The notes beneath the pieces were generated by a model that worked only from the letters and a program-made list of their open reading frames with translations, did no database searches and was not told the origin of the DNA. Shown here piece by piece: positions 15,434-42,377 of a stretch of DNA of 64,000 nucleotides. Both the position numbers and the translations under genes were made by a program. This DNA is from Candidatus Bathyarchaeota archaeon. GTDB taxonomy: Archaea; Thermoproteota; Bathyarchaeia; Bathyarchaeales; DTEX01. The stretch covers positions 512,001 through 576,000 of the forward strand of contig CAVQNT010000002.1 in assembly GCA_963714275.1 (NCBI GenBank). The letters run 5' to 3'. Numbering within the stretch: the first letter of the stretch is position 1; each line of letters starts with the position of its first letter.

Positions 15434-17174
15434 TTGAATTTTGGCTATTCATGCATGAGGGATTGCATGTCGGTTCTCAAATACTCAGAAATGCGGAACT
15501 GGGACATCATTGTCGACTCCGAAGCAATTCCATCCGAAAAGTATGCAGCGCAAGAATTCCAGCATTTTTTTGAACAAGCCACAGACATTCTTCTTCCTGT
15601 GCATAATTCTAACGAAAAAGCTTCTAACCATGTCTACATTGGTAAGAGCGCTGCGTTGAGTGAAAGCGGCATCACGGTTGACGCTTCTAAGTTAGGCGAA
15701 GAAGGTTTACACATAATCATAAAAGATGATGTTTTAGTCATTGTTGGGGGAAGACCCAGAGGCACGCTTTACGGGGTATACCAGTTCATCGAAGACGAGC
15801 TGGAGTTCGGTTTCTGACCCATGACCACACGCATGTTCCCGATTCTTCTAAGGCAAAGTTACATTGCAGAGAATACGTCTACAAGCCTCCGTTCAGTTTC
15901 CGTTGGAGCTATTACGCGGAAAACTCGAAACATCCCGAATTCGCAGTGAGACTACGTGTAAACACGGTCACAACTGACGAGAAGCTGGGAGGTAAAACAG
16001 GTCAGAACCTCATCAGCCACTCGTTTCACAAGCTGGTCCCATTCAGCAAGTACGGAAAGGACCATCCGGAGTATTACGCCTTGGTTGACGGCAAACGGGA
16101 CACGAACACGGCTTGGAGCGGTCCACAGCTGTGCGTGACGAACCCCGAGGTAGTCAAGGTTGTAGCTGAAGCTGCAATCCGTTTTTTGGATGAACACCAA
16201 TTTAGTAACATTAGCGTCAGTCAGGCGGACACGGACAAGTACTGCTGTTGCGACAGGTGCCAAGAAATCAACATGTGCGAAGACACGCCTATGGGGTCTC
16301 AGCTGAGCTTTCGTTAACGCTGTTGCTGAGCTGGTCGAAAAGGCGCATCCGAACGTTAAAGTCGGAACGTTGTCTTACTGGTACACTCGGAAGCCGCCCA
16401 AGACCGTTCGACCGCGACGCAATGTTCAGATTCAGCTCTGCAGCATTGAGTGTTGCACTTTGCATCCGATTGATGACCCAGACTGTCCGAGGAACACCGA
16501 GTTCTGTCACGACGTGAACGAGTGGGGCAAGATTTGCGACGACATTTGGATTTGGAACTACAACACCAATTTCACCGCTTACGACCTGCCCTTCCCGAAT
16601 CTGCGAAGCATCGGTCCGAACGTGCGCTATTTCCTACGCAACAAGGGGAAAGGCGTGTTCATGCAAGCAAACGGGAACGGAACCTCAGGCGAACTTTCTG
16701 ACCTACGGAACTACGTTATTTCGCGGTTGCTGTGGAATCCCGATCTTGACGACCAAAAACTAATTGAAGAGTTTGTGCAGTCTGCATTACAAGTCTGCTG
16801 CTCAGCCGATTTTGGATTACATCGAAATGTTGCATGACAACGCTGAGGAGTCAGGCGTGCATCCAAACTGTTTCCCCAAGCCTGAGGAGGTTGGGCTTCG
16901 CCCCGAAATAGCCCGCAAAGCCCTCGATTTCTTTAACAGGGCATTGGAGCTTGCACACGATGAAGCCTGTCTATGCGAGGGTGGAGAAGGCTTCCATTTG
17001 CGCCTACAGAGCCATGATTGAGGCAGGAGGCGCCTTGACTGAGGTTGAGTTAAGTCTCTCGTTGACCATTACATTGCGTTGTGCCAGCGTTACGACATGA
17101 CGTATGCTGCGGAACACAAAGAAGCTTCCCAGTTCTTCGAAAAGCTCAAGCAGCGGGTAAAGGACGCTTCGTGA
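15434..17174 (+). CDS. DUF4838-family glycoside-hydrolase-like protein (about four apparent frameshifts)
   Basis: GH67/hexosaminidase-like N-domain (GGRPRGTLYGVY), HPEYYAL..G.R, QLCVTNPEV, CCCDRC, LLWNP. Confidence 0.75.
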
Positions 17175-17303: not shown

Positions 17304-17637
17304 TGGCTGGTGTGCTGGCTGTAACCCGTCTTTTGTTTTAGGCAGCATTCGACTTTGCGGGCTACCTGCGTCTCGCACAGGCATTCATTGACGCTTGTTT
17401 GCCCTTCCACCCCGCAGGACAGCCGTTTCACCGTTTCCGCCTAGCCTACTCGGCGACTATGAGGCGCCTCATCGTCACGGGCTGAGCGGACGTTCCGTTT
17501 CTGTTCTGGAGCCAAGGCTCTCGCCCCACGCCTTGCAGCGTTGCGGACTGTGCGGTGGACGGAGTTTCCTCAAACACTTCCTTCCCCCATGACGAGGTAA
17601 GGGTGTGTCCGTGAGCCACCCACCAGCTCACCAGCCA
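17304..17637 (-). ncRNA. rnpB: RNase P RNA (archaeal type A)
   Basis: Minus strand has CR-I GAGGAAACUCC, ACAGAAAC, GUGAAAC and CR-V AACAAAAGACGGGUUA; ends pair (UGGCUGGUG...CACCAGCCA). Confidence 0.95.
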
Positions 17638-17691
17638 AAAATAGACTTTATTTGACTTGTTGGATAAGGATTACGCTTTCCATAAAACATC

Positions 17692-19926
17692 CTAAGACGA
17701 TTTAGGTCTGTACCGGGCTGGCTGTCGACTGAACCGAGTAACGCCGTTGACGGAACCGCACTGGGGACACTTCGCCTGTTCGCCGAGGAACGTTTTCTGG
17801 CAACTGCTGCAGAACGTTAGGGTTCGGTCAAAAGCGTACAATCCAATCTTGTGGTCCTGAAAGATTCTTCGGGTCGTCGAAGAAGCTTTTCAGCGTCTAC
17901 ATCTGTCTCGTCAAGCGGAATCTTGGCTAGGTGGCTTCCGGGAGCCAAAGCCTCAAAACGGGATTCGATGCGGAGGCAATCGTCCAAAGGCAACTTGGTT
18001 TCTGAAGGAACAACCATCATGCTCGTGTAGTAAGGATGGTCTCGTCCGCCAGCCACGTGAACCTCGCCTAAACCGTACCTCTCGACGTCCAACTCCGCCA
18101 CCCTCCTCGCAGCGTCAAAGTCAGGCGTCAAACCCACGGCAAACCTCAACTTCCTGTTCCTAGAGTACGCCTTTTGCTGTTTTGTAACGTAAGTAACAAT
18201 TTCCTCAGCGAACCTCAAGGCTTCTTCGCCCTCGTAAACGTTTTTTCCAATCAAGGCGTAGAGAGCTTCGTTCAACCCGACGAAGCCAAGCATGTAAGAA
18301 GAGTTTTCAAGCCTGAGATAGGAGTCTTTAGCCTCCTTTTGCGCAAGAAAAGGTAGAAGCCCCTCCTGTGCACGCCTCGAAACCGCGCGGCTTTTGATGT
18401 CTAAGGCTCTGGAACCCATTTCTGTAAGGTCAGCTAGATACCTGAAAAACCTGTCCTTATCTTTTTCAGCCTCGTACACTGCCCTTGGAAGGTTCAACGT
18501 CGCACGGTCAACGCACGCGGTTCGTATGGTGTCGAGCTCCCAATCCTCCCTCCAATCGTCCGAAAACCGTAAGCCATCCGCAGCGTACGAAACTTTCTGC
18601 CCATTGGAAGCAAGATTGGCGAAGTAAGGAAGCCCGTTCACGGAAAGCCCGTGAGCCTCGAATAGCAACCTCTCGGCTTCTGAGTCCCCAAAGGTTTCAG
18701 GACGCATCTTCACGATGATGCTGGGACAAAAAATCGGCTTGACATTTCCCATCTCCTTCAAACAGTCCAAAACCAGTGACGCGATAAGACGGCTCTCGTC
18801 AACGAAATCCGCATAAACACCCGCAGCTTCCCCGCCTGGACCAACAGCCTCAACGTTTGCGAGGAACTTGGGCAAGACAGTTTCCAGCCCCAACGAGATT
18901 CCCGTCGGAACCGTCACATTCACGGAGCCGAGGAAAAGCCGCAGGTCCTCCTTAACCTCCTCCTTCGAAAGACCTTTGACAAACGGAGCCAAAAAAAAGT
19001 TGAAATAGTCAACCGCCTGCTCGCATGTAATCTCAGCTGAGGCAATCTGCAGCATGTCAGCAACCAACGAAAGCGCTGATCTCAAGTTCTTGGGCGGTCC
19101 CAAAGAGGCACGTGAAACACTGTTTTTAGGAGCCAAACCGTTTTTCAGGAAAACTCTGAGGTCGTGCATGAATCCTGAGGTCTTGAGAATCCACGAGCCG
19201 AGTTCGTTGAGGTTCAGCGAGCCAGAAATGTGGGCGTCCGCTATGTCCCTCGGCAGGACGTTCAGAAGAGTGTATTCCTCGACGACGCGGCTTCCTGCTG
19301 CAGCGCGGACCTTTTCGACGTCAGACTCCCTTCACGCTCATTTCCCTCATGAGCAACGTAACGTCGTACACTGGGAAGCCGAGACGGGTGAGCTTATGCC
19401 TGTACTCTTCATAACCGTGTTCAACAAGAATCGCGTTCACAAACTCCCTGATCAACGGAGCCGTCAAGTACTTCGTGCCGAGCTTAAGCAACCGCTTCTC
19501 AGCTTCCCTCGAAACCTTCTGAGCCATCTCCGCTGGAACGTCTGCTTCCCTCACGAGCGACTCAGCGATCTTGTTTCGGTCAAAGTTCTCTATTGCCAGC
19601 CGCGAGGTTCGGACAAGCAGCCTCTTCTTGAGGGCGCTGTTATCAAGTTCGTCAGCAAACTCAACAAGCGTCTTACCCATGTCCGTCAAAACGTACTTCC
19701 TTGATTCAGGATCAGGTTCAATCAGGTCCATGCCTGTAAGGGTTTTAAGGTGGTAAGCGAACCTTCCGGCGTCACGGCTTGGGCTTAGCTTAAGAATGTT
19801 CATGATCTCCGTGTAGGATAGGGGTCCCTTTTCGTAGAGCAGCCTAAGAATGTTGAGCCTTAAGGCTGAGGCGACTGCCTTGAGTACCCTTGCCCCTAAC
19901 CTTCTTCTTCGAGCCAAGCCTTCCAC
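17692..19926 (-). CDS. ArsR-type wHTH + ATP-cone + catalytically degenerate class III RNR (NrdD-like) fusion, ~744 aa after repairing two single-base indels
   Basis: ORF 19321..19926 (HTH, VRTS..E.FD..KI ATP-cone, TRLG.PVYD) joins ORF 17817..19169 (HDL, TLNLPR, GFVGLNE) and a C-terminal CSSC/CPQC Zn ribbon; breaks at AG(A)CT 19323-19327 and AGCT 17884-17887. Confidence 0.88.
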
Positions 19927-20130
19927 AGCGACCTTTCAAACGTTTCGACTCAAACATCGTCTGTTTGGCGACTTACCAAGTTCATCGATTAAAGCCTAAA
20001 CGGTTTACTATAATAATTTCGAGTATGCCGTTAAAAGATTTTGGTAACAATTAAGGGTTCCTTTAAACTGCAAGCAATTTCTGACGAAGAACTGAAAAGA
20101 TATTTATATCCATCCAATAATTTTAGACCC

Positions 20131-20958
20131 ATGCACCCTCAACCAACGGTCAAAGAACTTGAAGAAAAAGCAGCTGAAATCAGGAGAGGTATTCTCGAAA
20201 TCATGGCAGGCGGAAAAAGGGGGCACCTCGGAGGCTCAATGTCAATCGCAGACATCGTAGCGGCACTGTATTTTCACCAGATGAAGGTTGACCCAAAAAA
20301 CCCCAGCTGGACGGACAGGGACCGCTTCGTGCTCAGCAAGGGCCACAGTGTCCTCGCACAGTACGTTGCCCTCGCCGAACTCGGATTCTTCCCAAAAGAA
20401 GAGCTGAAAAAAGTCAAGAGTCTCGGAAGCATCCTTCAGGGGCACCCGGACCACCTTAAGACGCCTGGAATTGAAGCTTCAACAGGGTCGCTGGGGCAAG
20501 GGCTTTCAATTGCCTGCGGCATGGCGTTGGGAGCCAGAATCGCCAAAAGGAAATACCGTGTCTACGCTGTTGTCGGCGACGGTGAAAGCACGGAAGGAAT
20601 GATTTGGGAAGCAGCCATCTTCGCCGCCCACTATGGGCTTGACAATCTGACGGGCATCACGGACCAGAACAGGCTTATGGCTTCGGGCACCACAATCGTG
20701 GGTTCGCTGGCTCCAAAGTGGCGTGCCTTTGGCTGGGAAGTTACTGAAATAAACGGGCACAACATGGCTGAAATTTTGGACGCGTTGGATTGGGCAGCAA
20801 CGGTTAGGAATCGCCCCACCATGATAGTGTGCAACACGGTTAAGGGTCGAGGCATCTCCTTCGTCGAAAACAACGCTGATTACCATCATTGCGCGTTGAC
20901 CGCTGAACAGTACGAAAAAGCTTGGAACGAGCTGACCCAAAAGGGAGGCGTGCGTTAA
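20131..20958 (+). CDS. Transketolase, N-terminal (TPP-binding) subunit
   Basis: GHLGGSMS, DRFVLSKGH, STGSLGQG, GDGE; likely start ATG 20131. Confidence 0.93.
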   Translation: MHPQPTVKELEEKAAEIRRGILEIMAGGKRGHLGGSMSIADIVAALYFHQMKVDPKNPSWTDRDRFVLSKGHSVLAQYVALAELGFFPKEELKKVKSLGSILQGHPDHLKTPGIEASTGSLGQGLSIACGMALGARIAKRKYRVYAVVGDGESTEGMIWEAAIFAAHYGLDNLTGITDQNRLMASGTTIVGSLAPKWRAFGWEVTEINGHNMAEILDALDWAATVRNRPTMIVCNTVKGRGISFVENNADYHHCALTAEQYEKAWNELTQKGGVR

Positions 20959-21909
20959 GTGCAGAAAATGATGGACATGCGGGACGCTTACGGAGAAACG
21001 CTTGCGGAAATCGGCGTGGACCCGCGTGTGGTAGTTCTTGACGCTGACCTGTCGCATTCGAACAAGTCAGACATCTTCGGAACGAAGTATCCTGAAAGGT
21101 TTTTTGAGGCTGGAATCGCCGAGGCAAACATGGTCGGGGTTGCAGCTGGGCTTTCTCTCGCCGGGTTCATTCCTTTCATTCACACTTTCTCGGTTTTTGC
21201 TGTTGGGCGAGTCTATGACCAAATACGAGTCTCGATTTGCTACCAAAACGCCAATGTCAAAGTTGTCGGCACAAGCGCGGGATTATCTGACGCCCACGAT
21301 GGCGCGACGCATCAGTCCATAGACGACGTGACGTTGACGAGGGTTCTCCCAAACATGACCGTGGTTGTGCCCTGCGACTGCGTAGAGGTCCGCAAAGCCA
21401 CAAAGGCAGTTTACGAGCATTCTGGTCCAGTTTACCTTAGGATTGACCGTATGCCCGTTCCGTTCGTTTACGAATCAATAGAAAACTGCGAATTTAAGCT
21501 GGGGAAAGCCAACGTCCTAAAAGAAGGCTCCGACGTCACCATTATCGCCTCTGGATACCCCGTTGCATTAGCCGTGAAAGCTGCTGACCAAGCCCAGAAA
21601 GAAGGTATAAACGCTGATGTTCTTGATGTGCACACGGTTAAACCTTTAGACCAAAAAGCAATCATCAAGTCTGCCAAGAAAACGGGGGCTGTCGTGACGG
21701 TTGAGGAACACAGCGTGATCGGTGCCTTGGGAGGAGCCGTCACCGAGGTTCTTGGGGAAAGGTTTCCTGTTCCAATAAAACGGATTGGAGTCAAAGACAG
21801 GTTTGGCGAGTCAGCTCTGGACTGGAATGAACTCATGAGTGCCCATGGAATCACGGTTGAAGCCATTGTTGATGCATCTAGGGATATTTTAAAGAGAAAA
21901 AAGGTCTAG
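20959..21909 (+). CDS. Transketolase, C-terminal subunit
   Basis: GIAEANMVG, DGATHQ, GPVYLR, VTVEEH; abuts the N-terminal subunit gene. Confidence 0.93.
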   Translation: MQKMMDMRDAYGETLAEIGVDPRVVVLDADLSHSNKSDIFGTKYPERFFEAGIAEANMVGVAAGLSLAGFIPFIHTFSVFAVGRVYDQIRVSICYQNANVKVVGTSAGLSDAHDGATHQSIDDVTLTRVLPNMTVVVPCDCVEVRKATKAVYEHSGPVYLRIDRMPVPFVYESIENCEFKLGKANVLKEGSDVTIIASGYPVALAVKAADQAQKEGINADVLDVHTVKPLDQKAIIKSAKKTGAVVTVEEHSVIGALGGAVTEVLGERFPVPIKRIGVKDRFGESALDWNELMSAHGITVEAIVDASRDILKRKKV

Positions 21910-24365: not shown

Positions 24366-24443
24366 GGGGTCGTCGGCTAGCTTGGTTTAGGCTCCGAGCT
24401 TCGGGCGTTCGGGACCCTGGTTCAAATCCGGGCGACCCCACCA
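24366..24443 (+). tRNA. tRNA-Pro(CGG)
   Basis: GGGGTCG/CGACCCC acceptor stem, CGAGC-TTCGGGC-GTTCG anticodon arm, GTTCAAATC T-loop, encoded CCA. Confidence 0.93.
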
Positions 24444-42299: not shown

Positions 42300-42377
42300 G
42301 GGCCGGTCGTCTAGCCTGGTTAGGACGCCTGCCTGACACGCAGGAGGTCGCCAGTTCAAGTCTGGCCCGGCCCACCA
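42300..42377 (+). tRNA. tRNA-Val(GAC)
   Basis: GGGCCGG/CCGGCCC acceptor stem; CCTGC-CTGACAC-GCAGG anticodon arm; encoded CCA. Confidence 0.95.

Follow-up and report, generated by a model that had tools for sequence, protein, structure and literature searches.

The stretch of DNA analyzed here, hereafter the window, comprises 64,000 nucleotides (nt) of a Candidatus Bathyarchaeota archaeon assembly (GCA_963714275.1) and corresponds to positions 512001-576000 of contig CAVQNT010000002.1; feature coordinates given below are window positions unless a contig or locus is named. On its minus strand, positions 17692-19935 hold three stop-to-stop reading frames that jointly encode a winged helix-turn-helix (wHTH) domain, an ATP-cone, a barrel resembling that of NrdD, the catalytic subunit of class III ribonucleotide reductase (RNR), and a zinc (Zn) ribbon with four cysteines. 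The first frame (19321-19935) specifies 201 amino acids (aa) from a GTG at 19926; the middle frame (17817-19331; 504 aa) is shifted relative to the other two; and the third (17692-17889; 65 aa) is in the same frame as the first. We refer to the composite, which extends from 19926 to the stop codon at 17692-17694, as the fusion gene. Its upstream region (19927-20040) is held in common with a divergently transcribed transketolase gene.

The first frame matches the ArsR-like winged helix models DUF7347 (E value 1.4e-9; 38.5 bits versus a cut-off of 27.6) and HTH_5 (3.8e-6; 27.1 bits versus 22) in Pfam over residues 13-89 or thereabouts (19660-19890), followed by the ATP-cone (PF03477; 3.4e-7; 31.1 bits versus a gathering cut-off of 25.8) at about residues 105-175 (19402-19614). 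While HTH_5 scores above its cut-off, the NCBIfam model HTH_metalloreg remains below (32.9 versus 55). The barrel occupies the middle frame (17820-19331), which aligns with model positions 12-487 of the 562 in the Pfam NRDD domain (PF13597; 3.3e-59; 201.4 bits), and the third frame continues the same model at positions 491-538 (4.5e-7; 29.3 bits) and carries the CSSC...CPQC ribbon (17758-17811). The motifs that a first-pass annotation, made from the sequence alone, had quoted from this locus (LRLNILRLL, GPLSYTEIM, AYHL, LNLNELGSWILKTSGF, CEQ, YAADGLR, TPDF, YYTSM, CSSC/CPQC, and SRQPARY) are all present in the translations.

That annotation had further claimed that repair of two single-base insertions or deletions (indels) would restore one open reading frame (ORF) of about 744 aa, and this proved correct as to both the type of repair and its location. 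P0001, the best database homolog, is a single protein of 744 aa that is 96% identical to the middle frame, has the same start and end as the repaired frame, terminating at the same residues, and is continuous across both junctions, reading ...MSVKGADVEKV... at the first break and ...DAEKLLSTTRRIV... at the second. We also compared window positions 17650-19950 with contigs from four short-read metagenomic DNA runs (X1-X4) from four studies; exactly two indels separate these from the window. At the first break, the base at 19325 is surplus, being absent from every covering contig of the four runs, as the first-pass annotation had placed it. The second break (17879-17885) is one base short relative to the population: the position proposed earlier, 17884, is ambiguous within a short repeat, and the contigs of all four runs place an inserted A behind 17879 (depths of 8.38/8.38 in X2, 10/10 in X3, 7.69/7.69 in X4, and 5.74/14.9 in X1). 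The absence of both indels from P0001 and from four metagenomes indicates that the gene is intact in nature, and the intact homologs and contigs likewise show that the HTH and ATP-cone do not constitute a separate ORF there. Moreover, 33 of the 40 population single-nucleotide polymorphisms (SNPs) listed, besides which there are 186 more, are at the third position of a codon in the repaired frames, the pattern left by purifying selection on a single uninterrupted gene. Hence, the locus appears to encode one 744-aa protein, and the two frameshifts look like assembly errors.

The assembly as given nevertheless contains the two breaks, contigs from other samples are no proof of the sequence of this particular strain, and in run X1 the second insertion is found at only part of the depth; it is therefore conceivable, but in our view very unlikely, that this strain does have both frameshifts and that its fusion gene is a genuine pseudogene. 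Against this, the two indels cancel each other, such that the first and last frames coincide; neither is seen in the covering contigs of the four runs, at identities of 95-99% or higher; and no stop codons or substitution damage have built up inside any of the three frames. The same assembly also splits the essential NrdG2, the class III activase, into two frames (contig C6, 125537-126089, minus strand) and has short ORFs genome-wide, with ORFs of ≥250 aa giving a coverage of 0.39 versus 0.64 in the loci of relatives, a comparison skewed by the fact that each relative locus contains the 750-aa gene. Within the window, a DUF4838 gene (16370-16834, plus strand) is truncated, starting only at model position 177. 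The assembly thus seems to carry many indel errors.

Catalysis by class III RNRs requires the glycyl-radical glycine and the two active-site cysteines. We set the corresponding columns by alignment with the canonical NrdD of the same genome, in which the relevant segments read SMCCRLR, PYCVGW, and SRIVGYL. In the window protein, HISGSLNLNELGSWILKTSGFMHD (19161-19232) stands where the canonical protein has HYSGDMHLHDLG..PYCVGWD, and the first catalytic cysteine is gone; SYAADGLRF (18564-18590) replaces the finger loop ..SMCCRLR.. and has no cysteine; and SRQPARY (17710-17730) is a degenerate remnant of the glycyl-radical motif SRIVGYL in which glycine has become alanine, with the protein ending five residues on. 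The intact population sequence restores neither the RxxGY motif nor the finger-loop cysteine, as the earlier reading of the locus would have it.

The same columns were examined in three sets of homologs, namely, 115 full-length close homologs; 61 wider, more diverse members; and 64 HTH-bearing members, defined by 70 aa or more preceding the cone, among 97 representatives of 560-900 aa (longer and shorter ones being dropped from 149 new representatives). Glycine is found at the radical position in none of the 115 close members (alanine in 99, including P0001, threonine in 7, serine in 3, glutamate in 2, and a gap in 2), and it is kept in 5/61 and 11/64 of the more distant sets. The first cysteine (the second active-site cysteine after HxHDL) is missing from every member (0/115, 0/61, and 0/64), while all 15 canonical sequences in the same alignment have it. 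The first finger-loop column is glycine in 115/115, and the second, leucine in the window protein, is cysteine in 37/115, 6/61, and 2/64; a deletion of six residues follows just after the finger loop in all 115. The three catalytic residues never occur together in the family (0/115, 0/61, and 0/64), versus 9 of the 19 representatives lacking an N-terminal extension. The check suggested with the first-pass annotation, whether the homologs lack the catalytic residues and yet are conserved, thus came out in its favor, although the loss is not uniform, in view of the glycines and finger-loop cysteines just enumerated.

The profile scores point in the same direction. The middle frame reaches 231.6 bits and P0001 272.4 bits with the NCBIfam NrdD equivalog TIGR02487, under its cut-off of 326.35, and P0001 falls far below the cut-offs of seven other NCBIfam NrdD models, in comparison with 583.4 bits for the genome's canonical NrdD, which also scores 1067.7 with NF006126 (cut-off, 548). 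In the genome family that we designate f32, the protein terminates four or five residues past the last ribbon cysteine in 7/8 loci, implying that there the glycyl-radical domain is gone altogether. From these comparisons, we conclude with high confidence that the predicted fusion protein is not a reductase and can no longer perform glycyl-radical chemistry. The homology to PF13597 across the whole barrel, along with the glycines of the distant members and the cysteines at one finger-loop column, could be taken to mean that it still reduces ribonucleotides by means of an unconventional radical site; however, the glycine, the finger-loop cysteine, and the first cysteine are found in combination in no member examined, all three are missing from the window protein, the C-terminal domain is wholly missing from most f32 loci, and the family is present in genomes without an activase (see below), making this extremely improbable.

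The loss of catalytic residues is not accompanied by decay. Mean column identity among the 115 close homologs is 64%, and all four ribbon cysteines are invariant in them (115/115), as are the three that were recounted in the wider set (61/61). The invariant residues of the 115 include A53, G54, F56, A57, Y58, H59, and L60 in the wHTH helix (AG.FAYHL); V105, R106, S108, E113, F115, and TAPLIRE in the cone, with its conserved stretches VR.S and YRHK.TR.G; and a set of family-specific tryptophan, histidine, glutamate, and aspartate residues in the barrel (W245, H254, W458, W462, E463, and D465). By this measure, the fusion family is clearly under purifying selection. As for its origin, P0001 and the canonical NrdD of this genome share 24% identity across the 689 aa from cone to ribbon, and in a tree of the 61 wider members and 15 canonical NrdDs, the fusion family forms one side of a branch with a support of 100 in the Shimodaira-Hasegawa-like approximate likelihood ratio test. 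On alignment and tree, the fusion protein is a paralog of NrdD that has kept the barrel, Zn ribbon, and cone and has gained a wHTH.

The family is a substantial one. A search with the middle frame recovered 625 proteins, and 115 of the best 120 have 700 aa or more, the great majority of these 115 combining DUF7347 and/or HTH_5 with the ATP-cone and NRDD. A profile of the 115 retrieved 3882 representatives at an E value of ≤1e-3 and 873 at ≤1e-30 from 1.84 billion proteins, canonical NrdDs being included in these counts. By source names, the members belong to Bathyarchaeota, Nitrososphaerales/Thaumarchaeota, Jordarchaeia/Freyarchaeota, and Promethearchaeota, and Pfam confirmed the three-domain architecture, ATP-cone included, in members from the last three groups, that is, from both Nitrososphaerota-type and Asgard archaea. 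About 107 of the 151 sampled Bathyarchaeia genomes hold a full-length or contig-cut copy (best E value of ≤1e-90), and in a phylum-wide sample of 301 genomes the protein is also found in several genome families outside Bathyarchaeia. The f32 loci, which come from complete genomes, encode a protein 40% identical to one that the sources name Thaumarchaeota/Nitrososphaerota. Taken by profile and tree, this is a large family of single origin in Bathyarchaeia, Nitrososphaerota-type, and Asgard archaea. Its members are named either "anaerobic ribonucleoside-triphosphate reductase" or "ArsR regulator" in the databases, confirming the expectation that automated sources would apply an nrdD label.

Two groups of shorter or divergent matches may be mentioned at this point. 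There are 170 short matches (110-352 aa) comprising HTH and ATP-cone, many of which are labeled partial, lie on short contigs, or include the start of NRDD, and one of which is the window's own fragment. Separately, P0216 and P0221 (688-690 aa) belong to another set of NrdD-like proteins, which have two ATP-cones and lack an HTH. Their NRDD match extends only to about model position 500, and neither the finger-loop cysteine nor the glycine domain is present; this group may be a second noncatalytic lineage.

The distribution of the RNR machinery bears further on the function of the fusion protein. Its own genome encodes, on contig C6, a canonical NrdD (PF13597; 664.7 bits) with an adjoining NrdG2; thus, a separate reductase and activase do exist, and on another contig. 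As stated in the first-pass annotation, no activase is found nearby: the window has no NrdG2 match, all such matches on its contig lying outside 512001-576000. In this genome, of 91% completeness, we found no PF02867-type RNR and no match to the NrdR model TIGR00244. Six Bathyarchaeia families have the fusion protein (11/14 genomes in f11, 6/6 in f20, 3/3 in f24, 11/11 in f29, 1/1 in f23, and 1/1 in f26) and no NrdG2 (0/14, 0/6, 0/3, 0/11, 0/1, and 0/1, respectively; 0/36 genomes in all); their NRDD matches are low-scoring, with none at the level of a canonical NrdD, and RNRs of the PF02867 type are present. A seventh family, f21, is similar except for one genome with both NrdD and NrdG2, such that NrdG2 accompanies the fusion protein in 1 of the 38 genomes of these seven families that have it, and about 37 fusion-bearing genomes lack both NrdG and canonical NrdD. 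By its distribution, the fusion protein is evidently independent of the activase. A true NrdR (TIGR00244 above cut-off), as a separate gene, is present in 19 of the 151 class genomes, namely, 15/15 in f2 and 4/27 in f18; in f2, nrdR is directly upstream of nrdD (e.g., 115672-116100 on the minus strand of contig C2 of genome G082, with nrdD at 113576-115300).

In terms of gene neighborhood, the fusion gene is linked to RNR genes of two classes, which bears out the tie to RNR proposed at the outset. Among the 60 class-level loci fetched for this purpose, 14 have a canonical nrdD directly downstream on the same strand, three of them with an intervening ORF that resembles glutaredoxin (L022, 6733-7059; also L023 and L025), and two have a class II-type RNR (lgN, lgC, and TSCPD) in that position. 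In one locus, a gene for S-adenosylmethionine synthetase follows nrdD (L036, 6945-8165). By coordinates, the nrdD arrangement is found in at least 25 of the 151 genomes, from 12 or more families. In f32, an ATP-cone-bearing RNR of the PF02867 (class I/II) type is directly downstream in 8/8 loci. Intergenic gaps range from 38 to 578 nt, leaving room for separate promoters.

The frequent adjacency to nrdD, along with selection on the whole barrel and Zn ribbon, seemingly beyond the requirements of a simple sensor, raises the possibility of a nontranscriptional partner, wherein the dead barrel would heterodimerize with or decoy an active RNR or activase, or buffer nucleotides, with the HTH serving just as a nucleoid tether. 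However, the linkage to class II RNRs, a different enzyme, is equally tight, and the genomes noted above have the fusion protein with neither NrdD nor NrdG. Further, conservation within the protein peaks in the wHTH helix, with identity over 80 aa in the eight f32 genomes. Hence, we regard such a role as quite unlikely.

An element that might mediate transcriptional control is suggested by the upstream regions. The box (A)CTCTAATTTTTTAAAC occurs 12-63 nt ahead of the start codon of the fusion gene in 27/60 loci, including families whose proteins are only about 40% identical. The exact 13-mer TAATTTTTTAAAC is found just once per genome, at the fusion gene, in four of the five genomes tested, and three times in the fifth. 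A 20-nt position weight matrix (PWM) was built from the 27 sites, which had been picked for containing TTTTTTAAA, and scored against 350 other upstream regions as controls (95th percentile, 1.4; 99th percentile, 8.3; maximum, 10.5). Overall, 27/92 RNR promoters score above the 95th percentile and 8/92 above the 99th. The corresponding figures are 7/14 and 1/14 for nrdD genes linked to the fusion gene, 2/2 and 2/2 for linked class II RNR genes, 13/38 and 4/38 for unlinked nrdD genes, and 5/38 and 1/38 for unlinked class II RNR genes; the 13/38 is conservative since, for about 14 of these 38 nrdD genes, the region scored consists of the coding sequence of an nrdR gene that precedes nrdD. In the genome under study, the position with the second-best PWM score overall is in the promoter region of the canonical nrdD (contig C6, about 128330-128360), where it precedes the gene by 130-150 nt and is immediately followed by a TATA-like ATTTAAAT. 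Thus, a rare box common to the promoters of the fusion gene and of RNR genes is a candidate operator, though only a suggestive one, because the genomes counted are related rather than independent samples and the box was chosen before counting.

The best PWM match in this genome, CACTACAATTTTTTAAACTG, with a score of 26.7, is elsewhere, in 112401-114900 of contig C5. An integrase-like ORF (PF00589; 5.5e-7) closely precedes it and small cysteine-rich ORFs follow, and this site may belong to a mobile element carrying the same box.

The commonest neighbor of the fusion gene is not an RNR gene; it is pyrB, present in 37/60 loci and mostly convergent, and pyrI is present in 19/60, with the same pyrB/pyrI neighborhood also being seen in families outside the class. 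In the window (20041-21909, plus strand) and in L017, split transketolase genes, in which the N and C halves are separate ORFs, are transcribed divergently from the fusion gene. Together with the coexistence of the fusion protein in f2 with an NrdR that may already serve nrdD, these neighbors raise the possibility that the fusion protein is a nucleotide-sensing DNA-binding regulator with a wider regulon, covering pyrimidine synthesis, pentose supply, or replication, and that its linkage to RNR genes is merely a part of a nucleotide-metabolism neighborhood. Yet, in contrast to the RNR promoters, the box is not enriched at pyrB (2/33 regions above the 95th percentile and 1/33 above the 99th) or pyrI (2/19 and 1/19), so pyrB and pyrI as box-bearing targets are unsupported. 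The mostly convergent orientation of pyrB argues against cotranscription, and the transketolase linkage recurs in just 1 of the 80 other loci, the aforementioned L017. On balance, we consider a regulon of this breadth unlikely.

Taking together the conserved wHTH, the ATP-cone, the dead allosteric enzyme, the adjacency to RNR genes, and the rare promoter box they have in common, we propose, as the most economical interpretation, that the fusion protein is probably a nucleotide-sensing transcription regulator of RNR genes, with both DNA and nucleotide binding being predictions from its domains. The protein would dimerize through the NrdD scaffold and bind ATP or dATP at the cone and possibly ribo- or deoxyribonucleoside triphosphates at the former effector and substrate sites. 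Nucleotide binding might then alter the occupancy by the wHTH pair of an operator located at the TATA box, or beside it, in RNR promoters, with the fusion gene's own promoter likewise being a target in most lineages. In this way, transcription of RNR genes would be coupled to the nucleotide pool. One may speculate further that the protein is the master sensor of the deoxynucleoside triphosphate (dNTP) pool of TACK and Asgard archaea: its cone would respond to ATP/dATP and its retained specificity and substrate sites to the four dNTPs, and through a TATA-box operator it would set both its own transcription and that of whichever RNR class is used. It would then constitute a regulator class without bacterial or eukaryotic counterpart; we offer this broader version as a tentative possibility that may well prove wrong.

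Several observations weigh against the regulator proposal. Within the family, there are the glycines that persist in some distant members and the cysteine at one finger-loop column in others. As to distribution, f15 has a full-length copy in 0/5 genomes and f18 in 0/23 genomes giving any match (of 27 in the family), though RNRs are present in both, and in f2 the protein coexists with a true NrdR in 15/15 genomes. As to neighborhood, an RNR gene is directly downstream in just 16/60 class-level loci, and pyrB, as noted above, is the commoner neighbor. As to the box, genome-wide counts with one mismatch allowed are no higher than those of a reversed-pattern control; unlinked class II RNR promoters are but weakly enriched; the box overlaps what could be a plain strong TATA element; its sites were selected by their core before counting, in genomes that share ancestry; and the fusion-gene promoter in the window is without it (best PWM score, -1.5), although the related locus L096 has one.

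Other sequence features of these promoters were also considered. The palindrome TCTAA-N3-7-TTAGA, taken from nrdD promoters of f1, was dropped as an operator, as in the genome under study it has no preferred spacing, yielding one to seven exact matches per spacer, and shows no evident linkage. The upstream region in the window has one inverted repeat, an ATCGAT-centered palindrome at 19981-19992. In the f32 loci (L077-L084), the density of GATC per kb is 17.6 in the region preceding the gene and 13.3 between the gene and that of the RNR, versus 3.3 in other noncoding DNA; it is thus four to five times denser in these flanks, and in some genomes the sites are about 11 nt apart. There is a class-level contrast in the recognition helix, with RDAG(R/K)F accompanying the T-rich box and KESGKF the GATC clusters of f32, and no clear covariation of recognition helix and box within Bathyarchaeia.

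The closest functional parallel to the proposed regulator is NrdR, a protein of about 150 aa with an N-terminal Zn ribbon followed by an ATP-cone, the binding sites of which are paired palindromes (NrdR boxes). As in NrdR, an ATP-cone is joined to a nucleic-acid-binding module, the gene is often found at RNR operons, and the protein is expected to read ATP/dATP. Unlike NrdR, to which it is not homologous outside the cone (P0001 has no match to TIGR00244 at 1e-5 in NCBIfam), the fusion protein would bind DNA by a wHTH rather than a Zn ribbon, contains a whole NrdD barrel of about 540 aa, and has as its candidate operator an A/T-rich box at the TATA region. The fusion protein may thus be NrdR-like in its working while standing outside the NrdR family. 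The first-pass annotation had seen in it an archaeal functional analogue of NrdR, which is too simple given that all 15 f2 genomes have both. NrdR is described as a bacterial RNR-specific repressor with a Zn ribbon and ATP-cone (PMC9110341 and PMC12176259), found in most bacteria and only some archaea (PMC9110341).

In comparison with canonical NrdD, the fusion protein keeps the ATP-cone, barrel, and Zn ribbon in the same order, along with the scaffold motifs LAPF, PYF.N, NLPR, GLNEA, and YYT, and the family profile matches NrdDs of known structure in the PDB with E values of 1e-15 to 1e-25 (8p23, 9.7e-26; also 9d3x, 4coi, and 1h78). It differs in lacking the radical glycine, the finger-loop cysteine pair, and the first cysteine, in the six-residue deletion after the finger loop, in a truncated or absent C-terminal radical domain, in the added N-terminal wHTH, and in having no obligatory co-occurrence with NrdG. 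Its N-terminal 90 aa resemble the winged-helix regulators of the ArsR/SmtB type, with matches to HTH_5 and DUF7347 above their cut-offs; unlike these, it falls under the NCBIfam metalloregulator cut-off, and its sensor would be the ATP-cone and dead enzyme instead of a metal site. A further parallel is offered by herpesvirus vIRA/M45, which are inactive homologs of the class I R1 subunit that act in the control of host cell death and have no DNA-binding domain: here too, an RNR catalytic subunit appears to be retained as a nonenzymatic scaffold, although the two cases are unrelated in lineage and role. We found no description of the family in the full-text literature, a search with subscription journals, RNR-specific databases, and supplements outside its scope, and term searches of PMC9669993 and PMC9531940 returned none in those articles.

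The control of dNTP supply in archaea is largely unknown, and the systematic annotation of this family as an anaerobic reductase can lead to wrong metabolic inferences, for instance, of an "anaerobic RNR" in genomes without an activase. If the proposed regulatory function is true, the fusion protein would clearly exemplify the conversion of an enzyme scaffold into the ligand sensor of a transcription factor. The presence of homologs in complete Nitrososphaerota-type genomes makes the proposal directly testable.

Among the remaining features of the locus is the RNase P RNA gene (rnpB), at 17310-17631 on the minus strand (Rfam RF00373; 194.4 bits). It follows the fusion gene on the same strand, as had been noted earlier, at a measured distance of 60 nt rather than the 55 bp then given. 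It is found directly downstream on the same strand in all five evaluable loci of the window's clade (in addition to the window, L017, 7294-7614; L018, 7289-7599; L019, 119-415; and L096, 5044-5349), the sixth, L020, being cut by the contig end. This arrangement represents conserved synteny or possible read-through and is probably no part of the function of the fusion protein. Farther along the window, a tRNA-Pro(cgg) is predicted at 24366-24443 (plus strand) by ARAGORN and is not listed by Rfam at the gathering threshold, and a tRNA-Val at 42300 is called by both.

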